A stretch of DNA of 64,000 bases from an uncultured Alphaproteobacteria bacterium (GTDB lineage Bacteria; Pseudomonadota; Alphaproteobacteria; Methylaequorales; Methylaequoraceae), in the NCBI GenBank assembly GCA_902550225.1, contig CACCYL010000003.1:6213-70212 (forward strand), given 5' to 3'. The position numbers and the translations under genes were made by a program. Within the stretch, counting starts at the first letter, position 1. Each line of letters opens with the position of its first letter. This document shows, in pieces, positions 19,744-47,875 of this stretch. Under the pieces are notes generated by a model. That model saw only the letters and a list, made by a program, of their open reading frames with translations. It had not been told where the DNA came from and did not search any database.

Positions 19744-19761
19744 CTATGTTATAATGTTTAC

Positions 19762-30374: not shown

Positions 30375-30400
30375 TTTTAAAATTTGTCAGTTCAGATTCT

Positions 30401-30886: not shown

Positions 30887-30955
30887 ATAAATTTTAAAGA
30901 TAAGTATTTAAAACAAAGTGAATATTTTTTTCACATAATATGTTATTTAAAATTA

Positions 30956-32637: not shown

Positions 32638-33246
32638 ATGACATTGGAAATAATTGACAAAATACTTAACTTGTATCTGTCATTAGAGCATTTAGTGAAT
32701 TTACATTTTTATAAATTCTCTTTTGCTTTCGTTTTAGTTTCTATTTTTTGGGTATCTTTTATAGGTATTGTAACTCCAGTGATTTTAATTTCAACTCTAA
32801 CTTTTGGATATTTCGGTGCATTTATTTCTTTATTTACACTTATGATAAGTTCTTTAATAAATTTTTTCTTAGCCACTAAAGCAAAAAGTTTGATTTCAAA
32901 ACTTAAATATAAAAAACCATTAATTTCAGATAATCCTCTTATTCTTTATATTATATTTCGTTTTCTTCCAGGAGCACCCTATCTAATTAAGAATTTTTCA
33001 GTGGTTTTATTTAAGCTGAACTTAAAAAAGTTTTTTCTGGCAGTTATATTATCTGATACACCCCAAGTAATTATTTTTACTTTTTTTTTTAAAAGGTTAA
33101 TTGACTCGTCTAGTAATATTTTTATTAATAGAAATTACAATCAAGTGGTTGAACAAATGTATTTACCAATGTTATTAATTTTTGGTTTCTTTATATTTTT
33201 ATATTTTCTAAATAAGAAAATTGGGGCTAAATTTTTTGAAAAATGA
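32638..33246 (+). CDS. TVP38/TMEM64 (DedA superfamily) membrane protein
   Basis: Polytopic, with the RFLPGAPYLIKNF re-entrant loop motif. Confidence 0.6.
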   Translation: MTLEIIDKILNLYLSLEHLVNLHFYKFSFAFVLVSIFWVSFIGIVTPVILISTLTFGYFGAFISLFTLMISSLINFFLATKAKSLISKLKYKKPLISDNPLILYIIFRFLPGAPYLIKNFSVVLFKLNLKKFFLAVILSDTPQVIIFTFFFKRLIDSSSNIFINRNYNQVVEQMYLPMLLIFGFFIFLYFLNKKIGAKFFEK

Positions 33247-33306
33247 TAAATAATTTTTCAGTTAATTTATTTTTCATATGATATAAAGTTTTAAATAATT
33301 TTTTTA

Positions 33307-33393
33307 GCCCCTATGGCGGAATTGGTAGACGCGACGGATTCAAAATCCGTTGAACTTCGGTTCATGTCCGTTCGAGTCGGACTAGGGGTACCA
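33307..33393 (+). tRNA. tRNA-Leu (anticodon CAA), CCA encoded
   Basis: Hand-folded cloverleaf: acceptor GCCCCTA/TAGGGGT, D arm GCG-GAATTGGTAGA-CGC, anticodon stem ACGGA/TCCGT with loop TTCAAAA, long variable arm GAAC-TTCG-GTTC, T arm GTCCG-TTCGAGT-CGGAC, discriminator A, CCA. Confidence 0.93.
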
Positions 33394-33416
33394 TTTTTTT
33401 AAAAATAGAGATAATT

Positions 33417-34346
33417 TTAATTTATGAATGATTGTAGATTTTTTTTGGCATATAACATTTTAGGATAATAATGTTGTTCAAGATCCTCTAACAGCCAATC
33501 AACATTAATTGAATCCATTTTTGTAAATAATAAGTTAGGAATTCCATGTAACTTTAAGTCAGATTTATGAGGAATGTATTTGGGTAAACCGCCACTTGGA
33601 TCTAAAACAAACATTTCCAAGCCATATTTTCTCATATGAACTCTCATAGTATTTAAAGAATCGTTTAATCTAGCCAAACAATGAGGAGCATATTCAACAA
33701 TCCAATATCGCACAATATCGTTTTTAAGAAGAGATTGGGATCCACGAAGAATTTGCCCCTCAAAACCTTCAACATCAATTTTCACAACTTTTATTTTTTT
33801 ATCATTAATTTCTTTATCTAATGTGGACGTTTTTAAACTCTTCCAATCTAAATTTTCATTATCAGGTTTTTTAACACCATATGATGTTCCTGAATCATGT
33901 GAAGAAAAGTGAAAAAAAACTTCCTCACCACTGCTCTCTCCAAGAATAGTTTTTTTTAGTTTTATATTTCTAAAATTGTTAAGTTTTATATTTGCTCTCA
34001 ATTCCTCAGAGCTCTCTTTTCCAGGTTCAAAGGCAATGACTTTACCCTCAGACCCTACTAGTGAACTCATTAATAATGAATGCATTCCTATATTAGCACC
34101 AATGTCAACACATGTGTCTTTTGGACTTATTATACGTGTTAAGAAAAGACCAATATCGTTTTCATAAAAATGTCCGTTCTTTATCCACGAATAAATAGTT
34201 TTATGATTATTTTTTTCTGGATAAAAATTATATTTAAACTCTTTTTGATGCAATTTTTTCATCAAAATATTTCTTTCGTTTAAATAATAGCTATTGTAAC
34301 TAAATCTGAGAAGTTTTTGTTCTTTAAACATAACCAAAATTAGCAA
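33417..34346 (-). CDS. FkbM-family methyltransferase (island segment 1)
   Basis: CVDIGANIGMHS SAM motif, VIAFEP and KIDVEGFE FkbM motifs. Confidence 0.75.
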   Translation of the reverse strand: MLILVMFKEQKLLRFSYNSYYLNERNILMKKLHQKEFKYNFYPEKNNHKTIYSWIKNGHFYENDIGLFLTRIISPKDTCVDIGANIGMHSLLMSSLVGSEGKVIAFEPGKESSEELRANIKLNNFRNIKLKKTILGESSGEEVFFHFSSHDSGTSYGVKKPDNENLDWKSLKTSTLDKEINDKKIKVVKIDVEGFEGQILRGSQSLLKNDIVRYWIVEYAPHCLARLNDSLNTMRVHMRKYGLEMFVLDPSGGLPKYIPHKSDLKLHGIPNLLFTKMDSINVDWLLEDLEQHYYPKMLYAKKNLQSFIN

Positions 34347-34441
34347 TATTTATACCAATGGAATTAAAATAACTAGTTCAATTACATTGATAAATTTTTA
34401 AGGAAATGTAAGAGATAGAGCAATTAGTTTCCCAATTATAA

Positions 34442-34480
34442 AGTGATAATTCTAAAAAGTGTGATAGTAAAGTGTGATAG
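34442..34480 (+). repeat. Phased direct repeats: AGTGATAA (34442), GTGTGATAG (34459-34467) and GTGTGATAG (34472-34480), flanked by A-runs
   Basis: Read directly. The two exact 9-mers start 13 bp apart. Homologous blocks occur at 37537-37558 and 46416-46437. Confidence 0.85.
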
Positions 34481-34527
34481 AAAAAACTTTATTTATTTAA
34501 ATCAATGACTTACATCCAAACGCAACT

Positions 34528-34584
34528 GATTCAAAATCCCTTGAACTTCGGTTCATGTCCGTTCGAGTCGGACTAGGGGTACCA
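34528..34584 (+). repeat. Copy of the 3' 57 nt of tRNA-Leu(CAA), from anticodon loop to CCA; att-like remnant 1
   Basis: 56/57 identical to 33337-33393. The single difference is C at 34540 against G at 33349. Confidence 0.9.
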
Positions 34585-34588
34585 TCAT

Positions 34589-35743
34589 TTAAAAGTTTCT
34601 GAACCTTTTCGGATTTAGCATCAAAATACTTGACAAAATCATGCAAGAAATGGCCAAAAAAATTGAGCTCTTGTAGTTATTTTCTAAATCAATGAGCATA
34701 CCGGAAACATACGGGCCAATTATTTGACCAATACTAAATGCAGTGGTCATAATAGCGACAGAAATATTAACATTCCCAATGAATCTTTTTTTCCCTTCAA
34801 CTAAAATTAATGCAACGGATCCAGGAACGCCTAAACCATATAGTAAACAAGCAAGAAAAAAGTAACTAACATTGTTCAAAAGTAAAAATGCAACACCTAG
34901 AGTAACTGTCGAACAAGAAAACAATAATAGCAAATCTGTGCTAATTTTTCTAGATAACCAATTCCAAACTAAAACCGAAGGAATGGCAAATAATCCTACT
35001 ATTATCCATGACATATACTGATAAAAAGAAATTTCAAATGAATTTATAGCTATTGCACTTATAAATGTTCCGAAAATTATATAACCAATGCCAAAGAAAA
35101 AATATCCCAATGAAATTACGATAAAATTTATTTGCAGTTTACTTTTAACTGAATTTCTATCTTCGTTTTTATAATCTAATTTCTGAGGGATAAAAATAAT
35201 AATGCCCGTACATAGTAATGCTCCAATCAAACCTACAAAAATCCATTGGTGAGTCCATAGAAGATCTACGGTTGAAATTATCCATACAACTGATGTTCCA
35301 ATAACTATGCCCAAACCAATCCCAGAAAAGTGATAAAGTTGTAAGGTTTTGTTTAAAGATTCTTTAAAGAAATTAAACATCAATGATATTGTGTATACAA
35401 AACTTAGCGCACTTGAAATCCCACATAAAAATCTTAACGTACAAAAAATCCTTAAATCTGTGGTAAATCCCATTAAACAAATTGTAACCACAGAAATAAT
35501 TGAAGAAAAAATAATCATTTTTCTGAAATTATTATATTTCCAAATAATTGGGATTATTGATCCAATTAGATAACCAAAATAGTTAAATGAGGATATCATC
35601 CCCATATTTGTTGAATTAAGATATAATTCATTTTGCATATTGGGCAATATAGGTGTGTATATAAATCTTCCAAAACCGATAGCTATTAAGGTCGAAAAAA
35701 TACCTGCCATAATAACATTAAAATTTACCTTTGAAAATTTCAT
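34589..35743 (-). CDS. MFS transporter, YbfB/YjiJ (DUF1228) type
   Basis: 12 TM helices. N-terminal GFGRFIYTPILPNM motif typical of YbfB-like MFS proteins. Confidence 0.72.
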   Translation of the reverse strand: MKFSKVNFNVIMAGIFSTLIAIGFGRFIYTPILPNMQNELYLNSTNMGMISSFNYFGYLIGSIIPIIWKYNNFRKMIIFSSIISVVTICLMGFTTDLRIFCTLRFLCGISSALSFVYTISLMFNFFKESLNKTLQLYHFSGIGLGIVIGTSVVWIISTVDLLWTHQWIFVGLIGALLCTGIIIFIPQKLDYKNEDRNSVKSKLQINFIVISLGYFFFGIGYIIFGTFISAIAINSFEISFYQYMSWIIVGLFAIPSVLVWNWLSRKISTDLLLLFSCSTVTLGVAFLLLNNVSYFFLACLLYGLGVPGSVALILVEGKKRFIGNVNISVAIMTTAFSIGQIIGPYVSGMLIDLENNYKSSIFLAISCMILSSILMLNPKRFRNF

Positions 35744-35766
35744 CTGAGTATTAAATTAATATATAT

Positions 35767-36555
35767 ATGACTATAAATAAATATTGTTGGTTTTTTAGTT
35801 TTTCTATAAAATTATTTTCAGTATTTACTATAATATATCTTACCTTTTCATTTCCTATTAATGCTCATCACAAAATAGATAATCCAACAATAAAATTTTC
35901 CGAATCCCCAGAAATAAGAAATTTTTTTTTTGAATGGAGGGGGCATATAAATCTTGATAGAAAAAAAGAAAATCATGAAACGTATCATCAAGTATTAGAA
36001 TTCGTTAAAGGATGGAACAAACGCTATGAAACAGATTTTGAATTACATATTGCTGATTTAAAAAATAGTTCATTAGCAATTCCAAAAGTAAAATTTCAAA
36101 ATAAATACAATTTTATTAATAATAAAAATTTTCTATTCTCAACTTTTTTTTCATTTAATTTAGCCACTGAGAAAAATAGTTCGGATCAAATAGAATATAA
36201 ATTTCTATTTCAAAACAAATTTAAGTATTTTGTTTTTAATAATGGTTTTGGGTTTTATAAAAATATAAATGGAAAAAATTCAAAAAACACGGTTCTAAAA
36301 TATTTTCCATTAATTTACTTTAAAAAACCTATTATATCCGATATTCATTTGGCAATCGCAGGAAGTAGTGATTTCGGGAAAATTTCAAAGTTTAGTACAT
36401 ACACTAATCAAAAACATCAATACGGAGTTGGGATTAAAAAAACTTTTCAAAAAAATACTCCACGCGAAATTGATTTAACAATTGCATATTTAAAGGGTCT
36501 GAATTCAAAGTCATTTGATCAATCACTTATTTGGTATGTAAATAAATCATTCTAA
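35767..36555 (+). CDS. Hypothetical secreted protein, possible outer-membrane beta-barrel
   Basis: N-terminal signal/anchor, alternating aromatic/polar strands, C-terminal ...LIWYVNKSF ending in Phe (OMP-type terminus). Confidence 0.45.
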   Translation: MTINKYCWFFSFSIKLFSVFTIIYLTFSFPINAHHKIDNPTIKFSESPEIRNFFFEWRGHINLDRKKENHETYHQVLEFVKGWNKRYETDFELHIADLKNSSLAIPKVKFQNKYNFINNKNFLFSTFFSFNLATEKNSSDQIEYKFLFQNKFKYFVFNNGFGFYKNINGKNSKNTVLKYFPLIYFKKPIISDIHLAIAGSSDFGKISKFSTYTNQKHQYGVGIKKTFQKNTPREIDLTIAYLKGLNSKSFDQSLIWYVNKSF

Positions 36556-36747
36556 TTATTATTAAATTATTTATAACAGAGTTTGTGTCCATCGAGGTAA
36601 GATATATAGACTGCATCTCAATCAATTTTGCACTAGCGGTGTTGGAAATTAATTAAAATAGCATAAACAATTTAAAATTTTAAATTTTTTATCTCATAAT
36701 ATCTTCAAACTTCTTGTAAAATATTTTTTTATAGTAATACTAATATT

Positions 36748-37254
36748 ATGAATTTGATCTTTGTAATTATTATTCTGTTGTTTTCTTTTAATTTAAATGC
36801 ATCATGCAAGTTTAAAAATTCAACTTCAAATGATGAAGTTAAATACACTATTCAGAAATCTATAAATGTTGATGACATTGAAGGTCATGTGATTAGAATT
36901 TTCAAAACAGAAACCAATCATAAAAAATCAAAAAAAAATTGTGAAGGTCTTAGGATAGTCAAAACAGATTTTTATGGTATTAGTGATTACATTAACAAAA
37001 ACGGAAGGGTAACTGGCTATTCAATTGGAATTTACGACGATGGTAGCAAAATTTTCTCTCGAGTTGATGGTGTTGCTCAAACCCCAGAAGACGTTAGTAA
37101 AAATGGTCTTGTTAATACTTCAATTACAATAACGGGAGGAACTGGGATCTACAAAGGAGTAATTGGTTATGGTAAAGGACAAGTAGAATTTAATCCCGAA
37201 ACAGGCTACTCCGCCGGGAATACCGAAACATTTTACACAATCTCAGTAAAATAA
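36748..37254 (+). CDS. Hypothetical secreted protein with dirigent/AOC-barrel-like GGTGxYxG motif
   Basis: Signal peptide MNLIFVIIILLFSFNLNA. C-terminal ITITGGTGIYKGVIGYGKG motif. Confidence 0.5.
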   Translation: MNLIFVIIILLFSFNLNASCKFKNSTSNDEVKYTIQKSINVDDIEGHVIRIFKTETNHKKSKKNCEGLRIVKTDFYGISDYINKNGRVTGYSIGIYDDGSKIFSRVDGVAQTPEDVSKNGLVNTSITITGGTGIYKGVIGYGKGQVEFNPETGYSAGNTETFYTISVK

Positions 37255-37258
37255 AACC

Positions 37259-37332
37259 GATGGCTGAGGGGATTTGAACTCCTTACATCTAGTACTGCAA
37301 ACTAGCGCTCTAACAAACTGAGCTTCAGTTAG
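37259..37332 (-). tRNA. tRNA-Cys(GCA)-like sequence with mismatched acceptor stem (pseudo-tRNA or 5'-truncated att remnant)
   Basis: The reverse complement folds as D arm GCTC-AGTTTGTTA-GAGC, anticodon stem CTAGT/ACTAG with loop TTGCAGT, and T arm AGGAG-TTCAAAT-CCCCT (1 mismatch). The acceptor CTAACTG vs CAGCCAT pairs at only 4 of 7 positions. No CCA. Confidence 0.5.
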
Positions 37333-37536
37333 TATTTTGAATAAATGCTCTACATTCATAGGGATATTCTTGGAAAAAATATGAAGAAATAGATTTCCTA
37401 GTCCTTAATGACTACATCACGATAAAGGAAGGTAACAAAAGAACTGACAACTTAATTAAAGAGGAATATAGATGTGGTTTTTATTATATCTTTGGTGGTC
37501 ATTGCTATACCGAACAATCTAAATAATTTGAAAAAA

Positions 37537-37558
37537 GTGTGATAGTAAAATGTGATAG
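37537..37558 (+). repeat. Phased direct repeats GTGTGATAG (37537-37545) and aTGTGATAG (37550-37558)
   Basis: Same 13-bp phasing and A-run flanks as at 34459-34480. No clear tRNA-Leu fragment follows. Confidence 0.8.
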
Positions 37559-37617
37559 AAAAAATTAAAAATTTTATTTTGGGTAATTCTTATGTTATTC
37601 AAATTAATTTTTTGAAT

Positions 37618-38631
37618 TTATTGATTTAATCCTTTTCTATATTTTTCATCTTTTGAATTTAATAACTTTTGTATTTCTTTTTTTGAAATGGTGCATATTT
37701 TTTCAACATTTTTTTGCCTTATGATTATTTCATAAAAACATTGTAACTGTTCAAGTTTGTTTGTATCAAATGATTTTTTTATATAAATTCCCTCATTTTT
37801 TATAAACACTAATTCTTGCGAATCTTTCTGTTTCTTGTAATTTTCGAAAAATTGAGACAAAGAATCATACGTATTTGGTCGAGATCCCAAGAATACTGTT
37901 TGATCAGGAAAGAGATTCCACTTGTTATTTAAACACCAAAATAATTTATTATCAAAAACTAATTGCATTAATTTTAAGTCATTAATTAGATTATGATCTT
38001 TGGTTATTTTTTTTTTAAAATCTTTCTCTATTTTTATTGATTTTTTGGGAGTTGTTTTTAAAACTTGTAACAATTTAAAAAGATCTAAACTTATTTCATT
38101 TAAACTATCTCCTGAAATAATAATCCCATGGTTTTTGAGTAAAAAAATATTAATTTTTTTTTTTTCTTTTATCGTTTTATCAAAAATTTCTGTTGCTAAT
38201 TCTTTGCCTGGCATTTTGTAATCAATGCACAAGTAATTTTTAGTATAATTAATTCTTTCAGATAAATCTATTTCTGCGCTATTCCTTACTAAATATGAAA
38301 TTGCTTCAACGGCATGTAGATGAATTACAAATTTATGTTTTATTATACCATGCATTAAGGTCTCCATTGATGGTTTTAAATTTTTAAATTCATTATTCTT
38401 ATTTTCCAAGTTTCCTCCTTGATAAAAATTAGCATTTAATTTTTCTAGACTAACTTTTACAAAAATATTTTTGTGCAAAGCATCTTTTAAAGAAAGTCCC
38501 GAGGCTTTAATTAATAATTCATCGTTATGTTTATAAGATACATTACCGCCTATACCCTGAACTAAAAGTATATTTTTGCCTACTTTGTCACAAAATTGTG
38601 ACAATTTTTTTATTTGTTTACTTTGGTTCAT
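37618..38631 (-). CDS. Class II aldolase/adducin-domain protein
   Basis: QGIGGNVSYK and KPSMETLMH..VIHLHA motifs, resembling the N-terminal aldolase half of bifunctional aldolase/SDR proteins and the AraD/MtnB fold. Confidence 0.6.
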   Translation of the reverse strand: MNQSKQIKKLSQFCDKVGKNILLVQGIGGNVSYKHNDELLIKASGLSLKDALHKNIFVKVSLEKLNANFYQGGNLENKNNEFKNLKPSMETLMHGIIKHKFVIHLHAVEAISYLVRNSAEIDLSERINYTKNYLCIDYKMPGKELATEIFDKTIKEKKKINIFLLKNHGIIISGDSLNEISLDLFKLLQVLKTTPKKSIKIEKDFKKKITKDHNLINDLKLMQLVFDNKLFWCLNNKWNLFPDQTVFLGSRPNTYDSLSQFFENYKKQKDSQELVFIKNEGIYIKKSFDTNKLEQLQCFYEIIIRQKNVEKICTISKKEIQKLLNSKDEKYRKGLNQ

Positions 38632-39373
38632 TTTTCTTTAGTTTTGCTATGAGCAACCTCAAATCATTGAAATTTGAAAAGGAAAAGTCAGGAGAATTTT
38701 CGCCTTTACCTTTAACTGCCCCTTTGTGTATTTTTTGAAATGTTACAGCATTGATCGAATCTTTTGATCCTTTTATATCTGCTATTGGATCATCTCCAAT
38801 CATCCAAATTTTATCTCCTTTTGGTTGTAATTTTTCAAGTGCTAATTTAAATGATGAAAAATGAGGTTTATCAAAACCTGATTCTTCAGACGTGACAACA
38901 TAATCAAAAAACTTATCTAAATCAAAGTATACCATTTTTCTGAACTGTATTTGCGCTGTGAGGTCAGTAACAATAGCAAGGGGGATCTCGAGCAATCTTA
39001 AGTCTTCGAGTAATTCTTTAACACCTTTAAATAACAAAGCATTATTTAGAAATGTTCTCCAATAAGTTTGCTCAAACTCCAGAGTCATGAGAATCTGACT
39101 TCCAAGACCTAAAATTTCGAAAACTTTATTAATATACAAAAGTCTACTGTGCGACGATGCTGTCCCCTCCAAGTAAGATTTTACAATCTTCCTAGCCTCT
39201 ATAAATTTTTTATCAAATAATTTTGAACTAATGTTAAATTTTTCCATAAACTTTTTTTTAATAGCACTCATCGCTTTTTCATGGGCAGGTGAATAAGGAT
39301 ATAACGTGTTATCTGTGTCAAATAAAATTGCATCAGGAAGTTTTAAAATATTTATATTAGAATGTTTTTTCAT
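38618..39373 (-). CDS. HAD-superfamily hydrolase (phosphatase)
   Basis: DAILFDTDNTLY (DxDxT motif I), VTD (motif II) and IGDDPIADI (motif IV). Start set at MKKHSN (39371-39373), a TAATG overlap with the upstream gene. Confidence 0.75.
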   Translation of the reverse strand: MKKHSNINILKLPDAILFDTDNTLYPYSPAHEKAMSAIKKKFMEKFNISSKLFDKKFIEARKIVKSYLEGTASSHSRLLYINKVFEILGLGSQILMTLEFEQTYWRTFLNNALLFKGVKELLEDLRLLEIPLAIVTDLTAQIQFRKMVYFDLDKFFDYVVTSEESGFDKPHFSSFKLALEKLQPKGDKIWMIGDDPIADIKGSKDSINAVTFQKIHKGAVKGKGENSPDFSFSNFNDLRLLIAKLKKNEPK

Positions 39374-41391
39374 TATACCATTTTTTTTGTCAGTACCTGA
39401 TCTATATGAACCAAAGTAATAAGCTGAATTAAACCTTGCACCCCCCCTTCCCATTTAGGTTTAAAGTCAAGAAACTGAATTGTTTTTGGGCAGACAAATT
39501 TAGCAGACAATTCTATATCTTTTTCAGATGGCTCTCCTTCTATTGTTAATATGAATTGATCAGAATCATTTAGTTCTTTCATTTCTACATTGAGTCCACA
39601 CAAACCAATTAAAGCTCTTGACAAAGATACCTCACTTAACCAATTTCGTGAAGTTATAACCAATTTGTATTTCAATTTTGAAAAATCTATCTTATCATTA
39701 AAGTTTGCGTTAACTGGATGAAGAGAAATTATCAAATCTGCTTTTTTTGCTTGAGGCTTTATATAAATCTCTGAGTCTTTTTCTCTTCTTTTTAGACTTA
39801 CCTTCACCTCATTCACAGTGTGTCCTCGTTTACTTGAATCACGCCTTATCTTCAAAAATTTTCTCATTTTTTCGTCCATTTCAATAAAGATTGAGAGATC
39901 ATAACATTTCCTTAATATTGGGAGGTAGAGTGCGTGAAGTCCACTTACTAAAATTATATCATTGCTCTTAATTTTTTCAGGTAAACTCATTCTACCTGTT
40001 TCATGATCGTATTTTTTTTTAAAAATATTTTTACCATTTATCAAATTTATTATGTCAAGAGTTAATTGCTGTAAATTATTTGCCAGTGGATTAAGATGAG
40101 TTAAAATTTTCCACATTGGTTTTTTCCTATCCCACAAATGATAATCATCTCCAGAAATTGAAGTTACAGAATTTTTACCAAATAACTTAATTATTAAACT
40201 AACTAAATTATCTTTTCCTGAACCAGAATCACCAGAAATTCCAAGTACGAAAGGTTTTCTACTTAATTTAAAAAAATCATTTTGGTAAAAAGAATATTTG
40301 CCTATTCTCATTAATATTACAATTCCGATTGTAATTAGTGCCGTATTCAACCAAGAATAAAGTAGATTGAAATAAATAAAATCTTGATTTCCAATTTTTA
40401 GTAAATTAATTACTAAAAAAAGAACAGAAAACATCACTGAAAGTGGAATTGAAAACTTATCGTCAGTAGACTGACTTTGATAAGAAACTAAAGATAAAAT
40501 AGTCCACACATACCATCCTGGAGGAGAAGGTGTTAAAATGGTTATAAGCAGAAAGGTTCCTCCCACAATATTCATGAATAAGATAAAATTAATACGATTT
40601 ACCTGCACAACTATGTAAAATACTAAAAAATATGCTAGAGGAAATATAAAAATTTGAGCTTGTTCTTTAAAATCTAAAGCAAGGCTATAAATATTGGAAA
40701 CCTCAGGATTTTTGTAAATCATAGAGATTCCTGAAGGTGTAAATATTACGAAGGGAAGTAATAATACAATAGACCCCAAAAAAATACCCTTTAAAAAATC
40801 ATGTAATCTATGTTTGTAAACAGAATTGTTTATTATAAAAATAAAAAAGAATGGTATGACCAGAATCATGCTTATTTTGATTGAAATACTTAAGATACAA
40901 AATATTCCAGAAGCAAAAAAATTTTTTAAATTTAAAGATTGTATTGCCAATAATATAAATAGCATTGGTATGATATCGTTGTATCCAAGAAGATATACAG
41001 ACGTAAATATAATTGGTGAAAACCAGTAAATAAATAAAATGAAATTTTTATTTTGTCCTGTTAATTTTTTAATTACTAATAAAAATAAGATATCTGCAGA
41101 TAATATTGCTGCATGATAGCCAATAATCATTGGTAGATCTAAAAGCTTTATTATGAATATGAAGGGTAAAAAAAATATCCACATCCCGTATCCATATGGA
41201 AAAGCTGCTATACTTCCATTATTTTCTAACCATGTTTGCCAAGGATCTAATGAAATTTGATTTATACTTAATTCTAAAAATGGAAGGTAAAAATCTTCAA
41301 TGAGTGATTGTTCAAAGTAAATTATTAAAAAAATTTTTAAAATAAGACCAATGAAAAAAAAAGGACTTTTGATTATATTATAATCAAGCAT
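39373..41391 (-). CDS. Fusion protein: GT-C-like polytopic membrane domain plus phosphoribulokinase/uridine-kinase-family P-loop kinase domain plus about 110-aa C-terminal domain
   Basis: The first ~380 aa are polytopic (about 10 hydrophobic segments) with an early loop DPWQTWLENNGSIAAFPYGYG. Then GISGDSGSGKDN (P-loop), GDDYHLWDR, LVSGLHALY, FLKIRRDSSKRGHT and YIKPQAKKADLII, a string of motifs colinear with PRK. Start set at MLDYN. Confidence 0.6.
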   Translation of the reverse strand: MLDYNIIKSPFFFIGLILKIFLIIYFEQSLIEDFYLPFLELSINQISLDPWQTWLENNGSIAAFPYGYGMWIFFLPFIFIIKLLDLPMIIGYHAAILSADILFLLVIKKLTGQNKNFILFIYWFSPIIFTSVYLLGYNDIIPMLFILLAIQSLNLKNFFASGIFCILSISIKISMILVIPFFFIFIINNSVYKHRLHDFLKGIFLGSIVLLLPFVIFTPSGISMIYKNPEVSNIYSLALDFKEQAQIFIFPLAYFLVFYIVVQVNRINFILFMNIVGGTFLLITILTPSPPGWYVWTILSLVSYQSQSTDDKFSIPLSVMFSVLFLVINLLKIGNQDFIYFNLLYSWLNTALITIGIVILMRIGKYSFYQNDFFKLSRKPFVLGISGDSGSGKDNLVSLIIKLFGKNSVTSISGDDYHLWDRKKPMWKILTHLNPLANNLQQLTLDIINLINGKNIFKKKYDHETGRMSLPEKIKSNDIILVSGLHALYLPILRKCYDLSIFIEMDEKMRKFLKIRRDSSKRGHTVNEVKVSLKRREKDSEIYIKPQAKKADLIISLHPVNANFNDKIDFSKLKYKLVITSRNWLSEVSLSRALIGLCGLNVEMKELNDSDQFILTIEGEPSEKDIELSAKFVCPKTIQFLDFKPKWEGGVQGLIQLITLVHIDQVLTKKMV

Positions 41392-41393
41392 TT

Positions 41394-41984
41394 TTAACAC
41401 TCCCACTTTTCTGGAAATTTCGTGCATACTGCATCAAGCTTGATATTCATTGCTTCTAATTTTTTTTTTATCGCTAATATTTTTGATTTGTCATTATGAG
41501 GGTGTAGTTCAGGAGAGGCTAAACAAATTTTAAAGTTTAATTTTTTTAGATTCAAGAATTCCTCCTCTGTTAAAACTAAATTGTTAAATACATCTAACCA
41601 AATCCAAGAAACCAAGTTGCTCACCTTTTCAGCAGTAATTATAGATTCATAATCAGAAACACGAACAGCAATTTTTTTTTCTCCCTCCTTTGACTTTTTA
41701 ATTATGAAAGGAAATGATTGATCCAAAAAAAAATAATCTTTTATATCATGTTTTAATAAGAGGAATTTTATTTTATCTTCAAGTCCTTCTTCTTTAACAT
41801 TTAAAATTAACAAATTATGGTTGTAAAATCTTATCCATTTGTCAAAATTTTCGCCATTTTCATAAGGTTCGTGATTTAAAATTAAGTTTCCATTATAGGT
41901 CCTTATATCAAGTTCTACACCATATTTAGTGTCTACCTTTTTTAATTCAGCGATACTATTACATCTATGAATTACTATTTTCAT
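41394..41984 (-). CDS. PLC-like/GDPD-like phosphodiesterase family protein (tentative)
   Basis: VIHRCNS...VELDIR...LILNHEP follows the HR...ExD...H(D/E) pattern of GDPD TIM barrels. Start set at MKIVIHR. Confidence 0.45.
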   Translation of the reverse strand: MKIVIHRCNSIAELKKVDTKYGVELDIRTYNGNLILNHEPYENGENFDKWIRFYNHNLLILNVKEEGLEDKIKFLLLKHDIKDYFFLDQSFPFIIKKSKEGEKKIAVRVSDYESIITAEKVSNLVSWIWLDVFNNLVLTEEEFLNLKKLNFKICLASPELHPHNDKSKILAIKKKLEAMNIKLDAVCTKFPEKWEC

Positions 41985-42675
41985 TACTATTTTTTTTAAG
42001 TTTGAAACTGTATTGTAAAGTTCTTTTAATAAATTTAGCTTTAGAAAAAAAACCAAAATTCCAGCTAGAAGATCCAAATTTTCTTTTTTTAAAATAAGTT
42101 GGAAACCTTATTATTTTTTGTTTTTTTATGTGAGCAAAGTAAAAAACATATAAATCTAATGAAAAATCCAAAGGAGGATTTGTAAACTTGTTATAAAAAT
42201 CTCTCGAAAACATTGTAGGCTGAGCGTTAATATCATTTAAGAGTTTTCTGAATAAAATTGTTTCTAAAACACTCATTCCAAATGTAAAAAAATTATCTTG
42301 AAATGAACGACCGTATCTCAATCCTTTTACAAATATATTTTGACCATTTTTTTCTATAATACTAATAGCTTTTAATATATCATTAGGATCAGTTTGCAAA
42401 TCAGCGTGAGTCCAACCAATATAATCTCCCTTGGTGTGTTTTAATCCAAAAAGTATTCCATATCCATAACCTTTATTTTTATCAATTTTAAGAATTTGAT
42501 AATTTTTTTTTTCTTTTAGTGATTTTTTAAGAGTTTTATATGTATGGTCTGTAGATCCATTGTCGACAAATAAGATTTCTATATTTTTTTTTGAAAGCAA
42601 ATGAACGCATGAATCAATAAGTGAGTTTATAGACTTTTCTTCATTAAAGCACGGAATCACAATTGAATATTTCAT
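41965..42675 (-). CDS. Family 2 glycosyltransferase, polyprenyl-phosphate sugar synthase type (GtrB/ArnC-like)
   Basis: YSIVIPCFNEE...VDNGSTD...HADLQ (DxD-equivalent) motifs. Short soluble GT2 next to gtrA. Confidence 0.82.
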   Translation of the reverse strand: MKYSIVIPCFNEEKSINSLIDSCVHLLSKKNIEILFVDNGSTDHTYKTLKKSLKEKKNYQILKIDKNKGYGYGILFGLKHTKGDYIGWTHADLQTDPNDILKAISIIEKNGQNIFVKGLRYGRSFQDNFFTFGMSVLETILFRKLLNDINAQPTMFSRDFYNKFTNPPLDFSLDLYVFYFAHIKKQKIIRFPTYFKKRKFGSSSWNFGFFSKAKFIKRTLQYSFKLKKNSNENSNS

Positions 42676-42678
42676 AAT

Positions 42679-43074
42679 CTAAGAATTTTTAAAAACATAG
42701 TACTTCATACCAAAAAAATTTAAAATAGCAGAGCAACCAGTAGAAATAAAGAATGATAGTATAAATGTTCTTTGAAAATTATTAAAATAATGATTTATCG
42801 AACTGTTAATTATAACATTCATACACATTGAAAAAAAATATAGAATGTAAAACCTAACAAAACTCTTTTTTACATTCTTTTTGTAACGGAAAGTAATTGT
42901 TTTATTAGCAAAATAAGAAAAAAGTGTTCCAGTGAAAAAACCTACGGCTTTTGCAAAATGAATATTAAAATAATTGAGGATGAATAAATAACTACAGTAA
43001 TCTAAAAAAACAGTAAAAAAGCCAATTGGTAAAAATAAAAAAATTTGTTTTTTAACTTTACTTGTTCTTTTCAT
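42679..43074 (-). CDS. GtrA-family membrane protein (putative polyprenyl-P-sugar flippase)
   Basis: About 130 aa with 4 TM helices and FLDYCSYLFIL...FSYFANKTITF motifs. Start set at MKRTSKV. Confidence 0.8.
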   Translation of the reverse strand: MKRTSKVKKQIFLFLPIGFFTVFLDYCSYLFILNYFNIHFAKAVGFFTGTLFSYFANKTITFRYKKNVKKSFVRFYILYFFSMCMNVIINSSINHYFNNFQRTFILSFFISTGCSAILNFFGMKYYVFKNS

Positions 43075-43081
43075 TTTGTTT

Positions 43082-44683
43082 TCAATTATAGAAATCATAG
43101 TCATTTGATATTTTGTACTCGTGACCTTTCCATTTATTAAAACAAGATTGCCAATATTCAAAAGTTTTAAGTTCATTTGGAGTTCCCCACGAAACATAAC
43201 TCTCAACCTCAAATAATCTACATTTTAAACCCATTTGTATAGCATCATTTAAACATGAATCTACATAGTATTCTCCATTTACTTTACCTTGCCTTTTTTT
43301 TAATGAACTTGACGATTTAATAAAATATTTCATTTTTTTAAATGTAAATGTACCTAAAACTATAGGATAATTTTCAAATTTATTTTTTTTTTTTACGAAA
43401 ACTTTATCTACCTTATCACCAATCATCTTAAGCCAACCAAACATTTTAGGCTGTTTCATTGCTTCAGGGTAGTTTCTTATACCCCAAACAATAATATCTG
43501 TATCTTTATCATTTAATAAACTTATATATTTTTCATTATTATAAATCAGTTTACTATCACATGATGTAATAGTTATGGGTGAATTAATCAGTTCAGGTTT
43601 TTTTTTTAGAAGATAATTGATACCTATATCAATAGTACATAATTGACCACCTGTGTAACCTGAAATTAAAGCTGTTTCTGAATTTTTAAAAATTTTATTA
43701 ACTTTTTCTTGGATTTTTTGAGAGCCTTTCATTGTATTTCTTATCAAAAATAAAGTTTTTTCAAATTCTGGCAAAGCCTTTGAAGCTTGTATCACCATTT
43801 CTTTACCTGACACTTTGATCAGTGGTTTAGGAGTTCTATACTTTTCTTTTAAAAATCTTTTGCCAATTCCTGCCATTGGTATTATCAGCTCACCCTTTGT
43901 CTTAATTTTTTTTCTTTTTTTTACTAAACTAGAGAATATCCTGGACCAATATATATATTCATGAAGATCCTCAGGTGTTCCCCATTGCATAAAATATTTG
44001 ATGGGATAAATCATAATTTTTTTCTTTTTAGAAATTAGATTTTTATAACTCAGACTCACATAATATTCACCGTTAGTAATCTGATTGGATTTTTTTTGTT
44101 CTTTAAAAGCATGGATCATAGAATTACTGTCAGAAAAATAATAAGTACCTGTAGATGCATATTCTTCAATTCGATTTAGGGTAAAGCTTTTTTTTTCTCT
44201 AATATCTAAAATTTTTCTTTTATTCTCTTTGATATATGCATAATAATTTTTTCCAAGTGAATGGGGGTGAAAACCCTTGTATGAGGGAATAGCTCCTTCA
44301 CAATCTTCGTTTCGTACGAATTTTTTAAAATCATTCCAATTCCAATAACACGTAAAATCACAATAATTCACAATAGTTTGAACTCCTTTTTTTATTTCTG
44401 TTTCAGCTTGCAAAACTGTGTGAACCGGTCCAAGTTTGTGAGGATTAATTCCAATAATTTTTCCGCTTGGACAAAATTTTTTAATAACATTTTCTACATT
44501 GAATTTTTTGTTTTTTAAATGATCTTTATTACAAATAAATAAAAAATTCTTTTCTCCAGGAAACATATCAATAATGTAGGATATAATTGGCCTTCCATTA
44601 ACGTCAATCAGAAACTTTGGAATTTGATACCCATAATTTTTAAATCTATTACCAAACCCAGACATTGGAATTATAATTTGCAT
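43082..44683 (-). CDS. Tandem-domain sugar-phosphate nucleotidyltransferase-like protein
   Basis: Two internal repeats, each opening with the NTP-transferase G-loop: IIIPMSGFGNRF...PKFLIDVNGRPII and LIIPMAGIGKRF...PKPLIKVSGKEMV. Both halves end in WGTPE/WGTPN. Confidence 0.6.
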   Translation of the reverse strand: MQIIIPMSGFGNRFKNYGYQIPKFLIDVNGRPIISYIIDMFPGEKNFLFICNKDHLKNKKFNVENVIKKFCPSGKIIGINPHKLGPVHTVLQAETEIKKGVQTIVNYCDFTCYWNWNDFKKFVRNEDCEGAIPSYKGFHPHSLGKNYYAYIKENKRKILDIREKKSFTLNRIEEYASTGTYYFSDSNSMIHAFKEQKKSNQITNGEYYVSLSYKNLISKKKKIMIYPIKYFMQWGTPEDLHEYIYWSRIFSSLVKKRKKIKTKGELIIPMAGIGKRFLKEKYRTPKPLIKVSGKEMVIQASKALPEFEKTLFLIRNTMKGSQKIQEKVNKIFKNSETALISGYTGGQLCTIDIGINYLLKKKPELINSPITITSCDSKLIYNNEKYISLLNDKDTDIIVWGIRNYPEAMKQPKMFGWLKMIGDKVDKVFVKKKNKFENYPIVLGTFTFKKMKYFIKSSSSLKKRQGKVNGEYYVDSCLNDAIQMGLKCRLFEVESYVSWGTPNELKTFEYWQSCFNKWKGHEYKISNDYDFYN

Positions 44684-44685
44684 GG

Positions 44686-46281
44686 TTATTCTTGACTTTT
44701 TTTGATTAAAATAAAAATACCCCTTTGGATCTTAGAAACTGAAAGTATTTGGTAACCTTCATTTTTAATTTCTAAGGATAAACAATTTAAATTACATTCT
44801 GAAAAATATTGGCCAAACAAAGCAATTAATAAATGACTATTTTTTTCTTTTGGCCACAAAAAAGCTGAACCATAATTATCTTTCGAATAATTAAAACTTC
44901 TTAATCTTAAACATCCATTTTTATTAAAAGATTCAGTTAAAGTATTATCAAATTTATCATAGGCATAAGCGTTATTACCATAAAAATGAAAAGCTTCAGC
45001 ACTAAATGTTTCACCTCCTTCGTACAAATTAATATCGCCTAAATTTAATTCTAAGATTTTTTCCTTTACTTTGTTATTTACATCTAATTGACGGTTAAAG
45101 TATTGTTTTTGAGCATTTATTTCTTTCGAAGAAAAAAAAATAATACCTACTAAAAATAATGGAAATATAATTTTACTTTTAACATTGAGTTTGTTTTTAA
45201 AACTAAAATAGCTTAAAAGAAAAATAAAGATACACATTCCAGATGAAATATGTCTCAAACCAACGGCTCCAGATTCAATTGAAAGATTAATAGTTATTAC
45301 CTTTACCAAAAAAATAGCACTTAGACCAAAAATCAATAAGCTGGGAAAATCTTTTTTTTTTTTTTTTGAAATTATTTGTGAAGAAAATTTTATGGAAAGA
45401 GAAATTAAATTTATAATCAGTAATGTTAGGAATATAATAAATATTGAAAATGATATATTTGAATATTCAAAAAATTTAAAAAAAAAATCTGAAAGATTTT
45501 CAAATTCACTTTTAAGATGAGAAGATGGTGCATTAAAAAATAAATTTTTTATCAAACCTTGAGTCTCACCAAGAGCGGAAATACAAAAAATAATAAAGCT
45601 AGAAATACAATAAAATATAAATTTCAATAAATATTCTTGTCGTTTATTTTGTAATTCAAAACAAATCAAAGTTACAATTCCAAACATACTAATAATAATT
45701 ATTGGTAAAATAGATAATTTTGTTGAAATTCCAGCACCATAAAAGATTGCCAACACTAAAAAATCTTTCAAAGAAATTAAATGAGGTTTATTAATTAATG
45801 AAAAAGTCTTGGTTAATATTACTACACATAAAGGAATTACAAATGAATCAGCACCATAACATGTTAAATAATACCAAAATGGAGGCCAAAAAATCAAAGC
45901 TGTCAAAGAGAGAAAAAATTTTATTTCTTCATTAAATTCTTTAGTCTTAGTATAAAAATAAAACAGTGAAAAAGAATAAGCCAATGCAACTACGTAGTAT
46001 GATACATTAAATATGGTTTGACTTGATAATATAGGATCATTAAAAAAAATTATAATAAATGAGAGCAAAAAAGTTGGGACTATCCCAGGATGATTTACAA
46101 CCGTTTTATCAAAACTCAAAAATTCTCGAAAAGATAAAGCTTTATAAAAGTAGTCTGCTTGTAAATCTGTTTGTCTAATAAAAAAAATAGAGAAATCAGA
46201 ATTTACAACATATGTAACGTAGGTTGTGAAAATAGTTATAAATAATAGAAGAATTTTATATTTTGAAAAAATTGGAAGCAT
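44686..46281 (-). CDS. Polytopic membrane protein, GT-C-like glycosyltransferase or polymerase (tentative)
   Basis: About 11-13 TM helices followed by a roughly 150-aa soluble C-terminal domain. First gene of the island operon. Confidence 0.45.
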   Translation of the reverse strand: MLPIFSKYKILLLFITIFTTYVTYVVNSDFSIFFIRQTDLQADYFYKALSFREFLSFDKTVVNHPGIVPTFLLSFIIIFFNDPILSSQTIFNVSYYVVALAYSFSLFYFYTKTKEFNEEIKFFLSLTALIFWPPFWYYLTCYGADSFVIPLCVVILTKTFSLINKPHLISLKDFLVLAIFYGAGISTKLSILPIIIISMFGIVTLICFELQNKRQEYLLKFIFYCISSFIIFCISALGETQGLIKNLFFNAPSSHLKSEFENLSDFFFKFFEYSNISFSIFIIFLTLLIINLISLSIKFSSQIISKKKKKDFPSLLIFGLSAIFLVKVITINLSIESGAVGLRHISSGMCIFIFLLSYFSFKNKLNVKSKIIFPLFLVGIIFFSSKEINAQKQYFNRQLDVNNKVKEKILELNLGDINLYEGGETFSAEAFHFYGNNAYAYDKFDNTLTESFNKNGCLRLRSFNYSKDNYGSAFLWPKEKNSHLLIALFGQYFSECNLNCLSLEIKNEGYQILSVSKIQRGIFILIKKSQE

Positions 46282-46415
46282 TTAAAACTCTTAAACTATC
46301 ATCTGATGTTAGAAACAGAAACTTTATCTAAAAAGCTGAAACAAAATTAGTTTAGCCTTAACAATTATGGGGCGCAAGAGGAATCTTAGTTGTTTATTAA
46401 AGATTTTAAAAAAAA

Positions 46416-46437
46416 GTGTGATAACTTAGTGTTATAG
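46416..46437 (+). repeat. Phased direct repeats GTGTGATAA (46416-46424) and GTGTTATAG (46429-46437)
   Basis: Same 13-bp phasing. The distance from the second repeat to the tRNA fragment is identical to the 34.4-kb unit. Confidence 0.8.
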
Positions 46438-46484
46438 TAAAATTTATCTGAATTTAAATCAACAACTTACTCACCAACTCAACT

Positions 46485-46541
46485 GATTCAAAATCCCTTG
46501 AACTTCGGTTCATGTCCGTTCGAGCCGGACTAGCGGTACGA
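46485..46541 (+). repeat. Copy of the 3' 57 nt of tRNA-Leu(CAA); att-like remnant 2
   Basis: 53/57 identical to 33337-33393, with differences at 46497, 46525, 46534 and 46540. It shares the C at the 33349-equivalent position with the 34.5-kb copy. Confidence 0.88.
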
Positions 46542-46562
46542 TTGTTTAAAAAACAAAAATAA

Positions 46563-47660
46563 TTATATGGAGTTTTTAGTTTTAAAAATATTTAAGACAT
46601 ATTTACCTATTTGAATAGATGATGTTAAGCCGGGTGATTCAATTCCAAATAAATTAATTATAAAAGAATCGTTATCAAGTTTTTTAGTAACAAATGAAAA
46701 GTCATTATTTGTATGTTTTGGTCTAATTCCACAATAGTTATAGTTTAAATTCCTATTTTTGACTTCAGGCCAGTACTTAGATATCGAATTTAAAAATTTT
46801 TTTTTTATATTTTTAGTTACATTAAAATCAATTTCCTCTACTTCAACTGTATCAGGACCGAAAATTGTAACACCATCAAGATTTATAGTTGAGTGGATTC
46901 CTAATCCGTTTTTTTCAGGTAGCGGATAAATTAATTTTTTGAAAGGTGATTTTCCTGATAAAGACAAATAATTTCCTTTTACATATCTAATTACAGGTAT
47001 GTCATCAACATTAATACCATCAATTTTTTTGGCTATAAGATGGCTGTACAACCCTGTAGAGTTAATTATAGATTTTGTTTTTACTTCCTTGTTTTTATCT
47101 TTTTTTAAGAAAAAAGAAATATGATTAGTTTTATTAACACTATGAGAAAACTCCGAATTAAAACTTACTACCCCACCATTATTTTCAATATCGGTTACAA
47201 AATTAAGCATTAAATCGTGAATGTCAATTATACCCGTTGTTCTTGAGAGCAAACCTATTTCGCCAACTAACTCGGGTTCAAGCTCTTTAAGATGCCTTTG
47301 CGAAAGTTTTTCCAAAATTAAGCCATTTCTTTCAGCATTTAGAATTATTTGATTAAGTTTTTTTTCTTCCTTTTTGCTAGTTGCAACAATTATCTTACCA
47401 CAATTTGAAAATTCAATACCTCTTTCTTTTGCATATGAATACAAGCTAACATTTCCGGCTGCACAAAACTTATTTTTAAAACTATAATGGGGATAATAAA
47501 TTCCAGCGTGAATTACACCACTATTTCTAGAACTATTTTCTTGACCAAATGAACTATTCTTTTCAACTACTAGAACTTTTTTACCTGATAAAGTAAGTTC
47601 CCTTGCAATTGATAATCCAACGACACCACCACCAATGACTGTAACTTCAAAATCAACCAC
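46563..47660 (-). CDS. FAD-dependent oxidoreductase, L-2-hydroxyglutarate oxidase (LhgO/YgaF)-like
   Basis: VTVIGGGVVGLSIARE..VLVVEK..SSRNSGVIHAGIYY N-terminus. C-terminal ESPGLTSS. Confidence 0.72.
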   Translation of the reverse strand: MVDFEVTVIGGGVVGLSIARELTLSGKKVLVVEKNSSFGQENSSRNSGVIHAGIYYPHYSFKNKFCAAGNVSLYSYAKERGIEFSNCGKIIVATSKKEEKKLNQIILNAERNGLILEKLSQRHLKELEPELVGEIGLLSRTTGIIDIHDLMLNFVTDIENNGGVVSFNSEFSHSVNKTNHISFFLKKDKNKEVKTKSIINSTGLYSHLIAKKIDGINVDDIPVIRYVKGNYLSLSGKSPFKKLIYPLPEKNGLGIHSTINLDGVTIFGPDTVEVEEIDFNVTKNIKKKFLNSISKYWPEVKNRNLNYNYCGIRPKHTNNDFSFVTKKLDNDSFIINLFGIESPGLTSSIQIGKYVLNIFKTKNSI

Positions 47661-47763
47661 TCATCAAACTTTACATATAATTAGTAAGATTCAAAGATAA
47701 ATTATAATTATATGTGAGGATTATAAATTTCATAAACCTATATTACAGAAATGATGATGTAAC

Positions 47764-47819
47764 TAATTCAAATTCCGTTAAAATCACGTTAATGTCAGTT
47801 TGAATTGGGCAAGGATTAC
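47764..47819 (+). repeat. Degenerate copy of the tRNA-Leu(CAA) 3' half; att-like remnant 3
   Basis: An ungapped hand alignment to 33336-33391 gives 39/56 matches, including ATTCAAA, TCCGTT, ATGTC and GTT blocks in register. Confidence 0.45.
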
Positions 47820-47875
47820 TGCAAAAAATTTTTCTCTTTTGTGAATTATATTTTTTTAATAGATTTAAACTTGAA

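Follow-up and report, generated by a model that had tools for sequence, protein, structure and literature searches.

A probable additive flexible genomic island anchored on tRNA-Leu(CAA) in a SAR11-like alphaproteobacterium

Additive flexible genomic islands at tRNA genes were reportedly described by Rodriguez-Valera, Martin-Cuadrado and Lopez-Perez in 2016, fGI-2 being one example. We analysed a stretch of 64,000 nucleotides (nt) from an uncultured alphaproteobacterium, hereafter the window, in which positions 33307-47821, starting at the gene for tRNA-Leu(CAA), probably represent a tRNA-anchored island of this additive type in a SAR11-like alphaproteobacterium, built by serial integration. 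The host is called Pelagibacterales-like from its 29% GC content and the marine metagenome and single-amplified genome (SAG) sources of related contigs rather than from a phylogeny.

Comparable architectures have been described in other streamlined genomes. One study reports four SAR11 islands in which inserted gene cassettes are marked by partial tRNA repeats, with no canonical mobile elements (PMC11796062). In Prochlorococcus, tycheposons form tandem elements split by partial tRNAs, the newer ones pushing the older inward and leaving degenerate remnants (10.1101/2020.12.28.424599), and Ca. Methylopumilus carries an additive island with recurring tRNA-Lys end repeats (PMC10872708). Pelagibacter populations contain tyrosine-recombinase elements near tRNAs, including tycheposons and satellites (PMC11876622), and pelagiphages integrate into tRNA-Leu and tRNA-Cys genes (10.1101/410191). 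The view taken in an initial annotation of the window, that the architecture would be unusual for a streamlined genome, therefore does not hold, given the precedents in SAR11, Prochlorococcus and Ca. Methylopumilus. To an architecture that is already described the locus adds a long att site and its conserved arm, a recently transferred minimal module of one gene, and a dated three-step series. It bears on the question of how SAR11 keeps a large flexible gene pool with almost no mobile-element genes.

Modules bounded by tRNA 3'-half copies

The island consists of discrete modules that are bounded by tRNA-derived direct repeats and exchanged as units between lineages, and the age of the modules rises with distance from the tRNA. 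ARAGORN called a single tRNA in the window, the intact tRNA-Leu(CAA) that had been placed at 33307-33393 before, and its sequence is identical in two related contigs, L001 and L007 (related contigs carry L numbers throughout). The last 57 nt of this gene were used as an ungapped query on both strands of the whole window, and three copies were found:

33307-33393, + strand: intact tRNA-Leu(CAA) (ARAGORN), an attL-type site
34528-34584, + strand: tRNA 3'-half copy 1, 56/57 identical, the attR-type junction of the FkbM module
46485-46541, + strand: tRNA 3'-half copy 2, 53/57 identical, with orthologous copies in L111 (50/57) and L112 (50/57)
47765-47821, + strand: tRNA 3'-half copy 3, 39/57 identical, directly upstream of a conserved flank gene

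Copies 1 and 2 were recovered exactly as first annotated. Copy 3 is real as well, with the coordinates given earlier (47764-47819) shifting by 1-2 nt. All remaining window positions scored at most 29/57, shuffled versions of the window (n = 20) reached best scores of 28-32/57, and for the 39/57 of copy 3 the binomial tail multiplied by the number of positions was about 1e-6. The 5' half of the tRNA-Leu has no copy in the window. Divergence grows with distance from the live gene, as had been noticed. In copy 3, 12 of the 18 differences are changes from GC to AT, and GC content falls from 49% to 33%; these AT-biased changes match the neutral decay expected in a 29% GC genome.

The similarity between the first two copies extends beyond the tRNA. 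The colinear 126-nt unit free of indels that had been reported is confirmed, positions 34459-34584 and 46416-46541 being identical at 104 of 126 sites without a gap, including 50 of 69 in the non-tRNA portion. A substitution common to both copies (G>C at 34540 and 46497) is likewise present, but related loci have G, T or A at this position as well, which makes it polymorphic and not the clean marker it had seemed.

Gene content was determined by Pfam and NCBIfam scans of the window open reading frames (ORFs); for Pfam, all non-overlapping ORFs of 110 aa or more were scanned, 59341-63906 excepted. The cargo that had been read from the translations (FkbM, a trio with an MFS_4 transporter, an eight-gene operon, and DAO) agrees with Pfam. 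The modules and the adjoining flank are as follows:

33417-34346, - strand: FkbM-family methyltransferase (PF05050, 9e-17), the lone cargo gene of the 1191-nt module 33394-34584
34585-37373, no single strand: 'trio' module (Pfam), with an MFS_4 transporter at 34589-35743 (-) and ORFs at 35767-36555 (+) and 36748-37254 (+)
37264-37328, - strand: pseudo-tRNA with anticodon GCA (Cys type) and a truncated acceptor stem (Rfam RF00005, 39.2 bits vs a gathering score of 29)
37374-37617, + strand: remnant with an orphan arm, repeats at 37535-37545 and 37548-37558 (AAGTGTGATAG TA AAATGTGATAG), with no tRNA fragment after it
37618-46281, - strand: eight-gene surface-glycan operon (Pfam, NCBIfam)
46542-47764, no single strand: DAO module, made up of a right arm (46542-46562), an FAD oxidoreductase (46563-47660, -; PF01266, 3e-53) and a decayed left arm (47661-47764)
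47876-48856, + strand: conserved flank gene, NAD_binding_8/amine-oxidase-like (Pfam), the right island border in all syntenic loci

The orphan arm (37520-37567) shares 97% identity with the FkbM arm across 33 nt, and its place between trio and operon points to a deleted junction. The division into segments made earlier thus stands for the single-gene FkbM and DAO modules, and the '12 kb' segment between them is composite, comprising at least two units. In total, the island holds at least four, probably five, cargo modules without recombinase: FkbM, the MFS trio, the orphan-arm stub, the glycan operon and DAO.

Exchange and age of the modules in related loci

Syntenic loci were found through homologues of the FkbM and DAO proteins; among them, L111 and L112 are SAG contigs, L007 is a 372-kb long-read contig, and L003 is a metagenome contig. 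Two or three tRNA 3'-half copies are present in the fetched parts of L003, L007, L105, L111 and L112. The initial annotation had proposed to ask whether the segments are present or absent in relatives as units bounded by the fragments, and this is what is seen in L007, L105, L111 and L112.

The window is 90-91% identical to L111 and L112 from 46463/46486 to beyond 57600, a region that includes copy 2, DAO, copy 3 and the flank genes. In L112 this homology begins exactly at the left edge of copy 2; in L111 it begins about 22 nt further upstream, the similarity there being confined to the proximal arm block. Beyond this boundary on the left, the three loci carry unrelated modules of 8-9 kb, namely the aldolase/HAD/PRK/GT2/GtrA operon in the window, a set of AsnB, GT2, methyltransferase and desaturase genes in L111 (8.2 kb), and HisF/H-like, nucleotidyltransferase, PPDK-like, APS kinase and sulfotransferase genes in L112 (9.2 kb). 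The glycan operon is absent from L007, L105, L111 and L112, which have other content in the slot; L007 has neither trio, operon nor DAO and holds 2.9 kb of other sequence instead.

The flank gene at 47876 is syntenic in L007, L105, L111 and L112. A decayed terminal copy stands directly upstream of it in L007 (38/57), L111 (43/57) and L112 (39/57), and the position of copy 3 is conserved in relatives with a flank identity of 72-91%. The exception is L105, in which the scan gave no copy reaching its threshold beside the flank gene. With flanks that are 83% identical, this locus runs from a fragment (54/57) through a FemAB-like gene, FkbM (92.5%), an arm, a decayed fragment (39/57) and 8 kb of glycan genes to the flank. 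Of the copies, copy 3 is ancestral, a displaced 3' half that every syntenic relative extending to this position possesses, L105 excepted. DAO and copy 2 are of intermediate age and occur only in the relatives at about 90% identity; the identities of DAO homologues are smoothly graded (91, 86, 83, 78, 74 ... %), consistent with older and largely vertical inheritance. The tRNA-proximal modules are recent and lineage-specific.

The FkbM module has recently moved horizontally between divergent genomes. The tRNA, the FkbM gene and the fragment together are 96% identical to L007 over 1284 nt, with an alignment that stops at the last base of the fragment, vs only 72-75% for the flanks of L007; in L003 the module is 98.9% identical. 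With the same ends, the unit stands beside at least five different neighbours. The start of the gene is likely at 34331, which yields 304 aa, the same as for the cluster protein P0001; the latter is 99% identical to the FkbM protein of the window and belongs to a 90%-identity cluster of 309 members. Most of the listed members lie on contigs of 1.0-1.4 kb, roughly one module. In most metagenomes the unit is assembled by itself, on contigs of about 1.2 kb, the outcome to be expected of a module whose flanks differ from place to place. The serial insertion at one tRNA that the initial annotation had proposed, with the newest insert nearest to the tRNA, is thus borne out by three levels of distribution: copy 3 is widespread, copy 2 and DAO are confined to the relatives at about 90%, and FkbM is 96-99% identical across unrelated backgrounds.

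A variant of the FkbM module with 86-88% identity was observed in L008, L104 and L106-L110 (for example, L106 reverse-complement 897-953). It is preceded by the proximal ~35 nt of the arm and a 49-51/57 tRNA-Leu fragment and lies inside a polysaccharide-biosynthesis island, with guaA adjoining in L008 and L104 and no tRNA in the fetched parts. This variant and its fragment appear to have been relocated by a route other than tRNA integration.

In L003, the order is FkbM arm, fragment, trio, fragment, FkbM module, fragment, and a STAS/cNMP-binding gene. FkbM recurs here in a second position. A chimeric assembly joined at the 57-nt repeats is conceivable for this contig, although every one of its junctions is present in the sample. 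The trio is 97-98% identical to that of the window and is closed by its own arm (CATTGATACAA twice) and a 57/57 fragment; the colinearity of window and L003 stops at 37374. Between trio genes 2 and 3, L003 carries an insertion of about 240 nt at 2215-2460 relative to the window (between 36681 and 36657), in which a tRNA-like T-arm/acceptor piece on the minus strand was recognised by eye.

Most cargo genes act in transport or in modifying the cell surface or envelope, as is typical of flexible gene pools at the strain level. The two ORFs that accompany the transporter of the trio are of unknown function by Pfam. Just past the stop of the 168-aa trio ORF lies the pseudo-tRNA(GCA), which is nearly full-length, was missed by ARAGORN, is present in L003 with the anticodon mutated to GTA, and may be the relic of a tRNA-Cys-targeting element. 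The glycan operon encodes a class II aldolase, a HAD phosphatase, a PRK-like kinase, a protein of unknown function, a GT2 glycosyltransferase, a GtrA-like protein, a nucleotidyltransferase-like protein and an unknown 531-aa protein. Counted from the first start codons, its ORFs 41394-42077 and 41965-42675 overlap by 113 nt and 42679-43212 and 43082-44683 by 131 nt; the upstream TTG starts of these ORFs are probably over-extended. In the tRNA-proximal part of the L111 array, 19602-20150 (-) encodes a PycTM-domain protein (Pycsar-type defence effector family), so defence genes also ride in such arrays. The first module after the tRNA in L001 carries a D12-class N6-adenine DNA methyltransferase.

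The left side of the tRNA is poorly conserved. A scan of the genome collection with the upstream DedA/VTT anchor gave one 5.5-kb SAG contig (L001). Exact-protein look-ups found the DedA/VTT protein only on a 1.3-kb contig and had no record of the flank gene 47876-48856. The region 30000-33306 is atypical and variable, with a GC content of 23.6%, a second FkbM-family methyltransferase at 30956-31672, DsbB and two VTT/DedA genes; COQ7 is also among the genes upstream of the tRNA, and none of them is an integrase. An HNH endonuclease (29293-29853, +; PF01844, 1e-17), the only nuclease-type match in the window, lies 3.5 kb upstream of the tRNA. This side carries no tRNA fragments; in relatives it holds AsnB and GT2 (L001) or sugar-nucleotide genes (L007).

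Att-type arms and the origin of the insertions

The tRNA fragments are accompanied by conserved non-tRNA sequence, the arms, which in the FkbM and operon modules lie at:

33394-33416, + strand: right (P'-like) arm of the FkbM module, TTTTTTTAAAAATAGAGATAATT, from the junction table
34347-34527, + strand: left (P-type) arm of the FkbM module, with 13-nt-period repeats AAGTGTGATAG at 34457 and 34470 and the proximal block CAATGACTTACATCCAAACGCAACT
46282-46484, + strand: left arm of the operon module; its repeats, AAGTGTGATAA (46414) and TAGTGTTATAG (46427), are degenerate

On the right side, a motif like TTTTTTTAAAAATAGAGATAATT is also found 3' of CCA at the DAO module (46542-46562) and in L001 and L008. 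Its T-rich consensus TT(T/G)TTTAAAAA.A.A.ATAATT lies directly 3' of CCA in FkbM, DAO and the first modules of L001 and L008, and L001 3474-3555 is 89% identical to window 46482-46564. On the left side, the core-adjacent block reads ...(C)AATGACTTACA.CCAAACGCAACT, then GATTC, and loosely resembles the D-arm/anticodon-stem side of a tRNA. The proximal block ...ACTTAC..C.AAC.CAACT stands upstream of the fragments of the FkbM and operon modules and of modules in L103, L104, L105 and L111. These conserved arms on unrelated cargo agree with the earlier proposal that the incoming elements were related and brought their own att arm.

A search for AAGTGTGATAG with at most one mismatch found six sites in the window vs 1.1 expected; five of the six are inside the island, all five on the + strand. 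Across the arms, the repeats of 13-nt period occur in the variants GTGTGATAG, GTTTGATAG, GTTTGATAC, CATTGATAC and GTGTGAGA, and paired repeats vary in parallel (GTGTGATAG twice in the window and L003, GTTTGATAG twice in L100 and L101, GTTTGATAC twice in L007). To judge from these sequences, the parallel change hints at a cognate binding protein. Taken as proof of such a protein it is weakened: the number of repeats is either 1 or 2 (L103, L112), so that slippage could homogenise the copies.

The putative core, CAACTGA-TTCAAAA-TCCGTTG, consists of 7-nt inverted repeats (CAACTGA/TCCGTTG) that flank the 7-nt anticodon loop TTCAAAA. A stem-loop layout of inverted repeats around the anticodon loop suits a core site of tRNA-targeting tyrosine integrases, a group that was reportedly treated by Williams in 2002. 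The base 3 nt upstream of GATTC is T in left arms (ACTGA) vs G in the tRNA (ACGGA), and the T always accompanies the left arm, the behaviour expected of attR. A crossover in the anticodon loop, as first suggested, is plausible by analogy; the +13 base is polymorphic and tracks neither side cleanly. A more exact crossover point 3' of the C at 34540 was considered and dropped when further junctions showed the position to be polymorphic and unlinked to either side.

A sigma-70-like site (ATCACA-18-TAGAAT, 34478-34449, -) overlaps the arm repeats and faces the FkbM gene, and from its sequence the arm may also act as a cassette promoter or operator. As a general role, that of promoter was rejected: promoter-like sites are no commoner than in shuffled sequences, and two arms have no gene to drive.

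In the serial integration that we favour, elements with an attP would integrate one after another at the tRNA-Leu. The attP would consist of a left arm, a tRNA copy from anticodon stem to CCA, and a short T-rich right arm. Each insertion would restore the tRNA with the element's own 3' half and displace the older 3' half, plus everything behind it, away from the tRNA gene, and the 3' 57 nt of the live tRNA-Leu would come from the most recently inserted module. Judging from the 7-nt inverted repeats around the anticodon loop, the chemistry would probably be that of a tyrosine recombinase. For the original insertions, we consider it somewhat more likely that a rare tycheposon-like or phage element provided the integrase in trans.

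Several observations weigh against this account. As the initial annotation had found by eye, no integrase, resolvase, transposase or phage family was present in the scanned window ORFs, nor any recombinase among the Pfam matches in the fetched parts of L001, L003, L007, L105, L111 and L112, a search that is not exhaustive. Among 2.9 million IMG/VR contigs, none matched either of two exact core patterns, the arm pattern gave 91 matches there, all of them by chance and without extension, and the arm together with the fragment had no match in 50,697 phage records (blastn). The distal arm is missing at junctions in L112 (9915), L104 and L106, and the fragment is missing at window 37535 and at the FemAB-FkbM fusion of L105; non-site-specific rearrangement thus also happens. 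The +13 base is G, C, T or A and differs even among the orthologous copy-2 fragments of window, L111 and L112; linked cleanly to neither side, it does not allow the crossover point to be mapped. The parallel change of the arm repeats is also explicable by slippage (1 vs 2 repeats in L103 and L112).

Part of this evidence is what would be expected if RecA did the present-day work. In that case modules would be gained, lost, replaced and duplicated through the tRNA (87 nt) and its copies of 57-66 nt as portable homology anchors, making the locus a replacement-type flexible island, whatever made the fragments long ago. We consider this a serious possibility, if slightly short of an even chance. 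Exchange tracts that end within or at the edge of repeats are predicted by RecA shuffling likewise, and junctions without arms, modules fused without a fragment, and the FkbM variant with its fragment in the polysaccharide island near guaA, with no tRNA in the fetched parts (L008, L104, L106-L110), are accounted for better by it than by an integrase in trans. The +13 polymorphism that segregates with neither side fits it too, as does the lack of a recombinase in the scanned window ORFs and fetched loci. However, it leaves unexplained the origin of the fragments, the conserved non-tRNA arm of ~70-130 nt on unrelated cargo, and the strict same-strand gradient of age away from the tRNA. A homology of 57 nt is, moreover, short for efficient RecA exchange. 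RecA recombination on repeats of 57-87 nt is nevertheless probably a real contributor to later shuffling.

An active system analogous to integrons would go further than serial integration. SAR11-type cells would then have a working cassette system of minimal circles with one to few genes, in which non-autonomous, att-only cassettes (FkbM being a 1191-nt circle of one gene and a compact attP of ~260 nt) are moved today by a tRNA-Leu(CAA)-specific tyrosine recombinase that is encoded not in the cassette but elsewhere (chromosome, rare tycheposon or satellite, infecting pelagiphage). The ~260-nt attP would hold a left arm with tandem 13-nt protein-binding repeats, a mimic of tRNA-Leu(CAA) from anticodon stem to CCA, and a T-rich right arm that would also restore the 3' flank of the tRNA; a rare tycheposon, a satellite or an infecting phage would be candidates for the recombinase of capture and release. 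We regard such present-day movement as doubtful, and the existence of a working cassette system in these cells as a tentative proposal at most. In its favour, the ends of the FkbM unit are the same in four or more contexts, the unit was recently transferred horizontally, and unrelated cargo carries conserved arms whose repeats vary in parallel. In addition, L102 and L100 start with the arm-type junction AACGCAACT, then GATTC...CCA, then TTTTTTTAAAAA, as expected of an excised circle or a tandem copy, and L101 bears a direct repeat of 41 nt at its termini and, once the overlap is subtracted, measures 1191 nt, exactly one unit. Pelagibacter also has tyrosine-recombinase elements near tRNAs (PMC11876622). 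However, recombinase and free attP were not found in the window, the fetched loci, IMG/VR or the phage records, the signatures of L100-L102 are equally expected from assembly-graph breaks at the repeats around an integrated module, the ends of L100 differ by single-nucleotide polymorphisms so that L100 is not a circle, and slippage can account for the parallel repeat changes.

Far less probable is that the modules are remnants of prophages, that is, of HTVC019P-type pelagiphage podoviruses at tRNA-Leu or tRNA-Cys from which the phage genes were deleted. Such phages integrate into SAR11 tRNA-Leu and tRNA-Cys genes (10.1101/410191), and a pseudo-tRNA-Cys(GCA) does lie within the trio module. On the other hand, Pfam found no phage-family gene in the island, and the modules are cargo units of 1.2-9 kb with defined ends, not eroded 40-kb genomes. 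The tRNA-Leu(CAA) core, the arm and the pseudo-tRNA region have no match in the phage records or IMG/VR contigs searched; for the pseudo-tRNA region this refers to the 50,697 phage records (blastn). Against the same records (INPHARED, blastn), the tRNA itself matched only generic phage tRNA-Leu genes. Chance similarity or an assembly artefact, for which only the low complexity of AT-rich DNA speaks, is practically negligible, given matches of 39-57/57 vs a shuffle maximum of 32 and the same junctions in independent assemblies (SAGs, Tara short-read contigs and a long-read contig).

Read as a product of serial integration, the locus is a clean, datable record that comprises an ancestral displaced tRNA half, a vertically inherited intermediate module and a near-identical tRNA-proximal single-gene module. 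Arm and core give a concrete att query, CAACTGATTCAAAATCCGTTGAAC preceded by ...ACTTAC..C.AAC.CAACT, with which long-read, vesicle and virus-particle datasets can be fished for the recombinase and free circles. Should att-only modules be served by a recombinase in trans, a functional integron analogue would exist in the most abundant heterotroph of the ocean, and a cassette system of this kind would give a genome nearly without mobile DNA access to a large pool of cassettes. Otherwise, the locus shows short tRNA relics serving as recombination anchors.

Comparison with described systems

Chromosomal integrons share with the island the ordered, small, often single-gene cassettes, which carry their own site and no recombinase, with the newest by the insertion point. 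They differ in that no intI, attI or Pc lies by the array here, that the cassette ends are tRNA-derived direct repeats and not attC hairpins, and that some modules are multi-gene operons with their own upstream regions. Since there is no intI integrase or attI at the head of the array and the repeats are not attC-like (by inspection, not by an attC model), the locus is not an integron.

HTVC019P-type pelagiphage integration concerns the same host group and the same target class, the 3' part of a tRNA with a shared core. Unlike a prophage of this type, the island has no structural or replication genes of phages (Pfam), and no phage record matches the tRNA-Leu(CAA) core, nor was an att-type match found in INPHARED or IMG/VR.

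Tycheposons (Hackl et al., 10.1101/2020.12.28.424599) are likewise tRNA-targeted, form tandem elements separated by partial tRNAs, leave remnants and carry niche-adaptive cargo, and integration at the tRNA between a full and a partial tRNA is seen here as well. In contrast to them, the units consist of cargo and att only: there is no integrase, excisionase, primase or helicase module in the window or fetched loci, no recombinase at one end and no replication/regulation module in the scanned ORFs, and primase/helicase, xis and regulator families are absent from the island (Pfam). Without recombinase or replication module, the locus itself is not a tycheposon.

Closer in composition are the cis-mobilisable elements (CIMEs) and the accretion-mobilisation at att sites of Streptococcus integrative and conjugative elements (ICEs), reportedly described by Pavlovic in 2004, Bellanger in 2011 and Puymege in 2013. 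CIMEs are attL/attR-flanked modules without recombination genes that stack in tandem by site-specific accretion at one att site, and the FkbM module, placed between the tRNA and the first fragment with arms at both ends and a single methyltransferase gene, has the same form. They differ in being Firmicutes ICE derivatives for which cis-mobilisation by an incoming ICE was demonstrated; here, no helper was identified and there is no conjugation context. Conceptually, the integrase-less att-flanked modules may be equated with CIMEs.

The island is most similar to additive flexible genomic islands. It runs from the 3' end of a tRNA to a core gene, its cassettes are delimited by direct repeats of the tRNA end, related genomes differ in their cassettes, and a strain-variable content, few or no mobility genes and a streamlined host are common to both. 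It differs in its repeat, which spans 57-66 nt from the anticodon stem and is joined to a conserved non-tRNA arm with 13-nt tandem repeats; neither this arm nor the tRNA-Leu(CAA) locus is mentioned in the passages compared from SAR11 papers. It differs further in that the transfer of a single-gene module of 1.19 kb as a unit is shown here.

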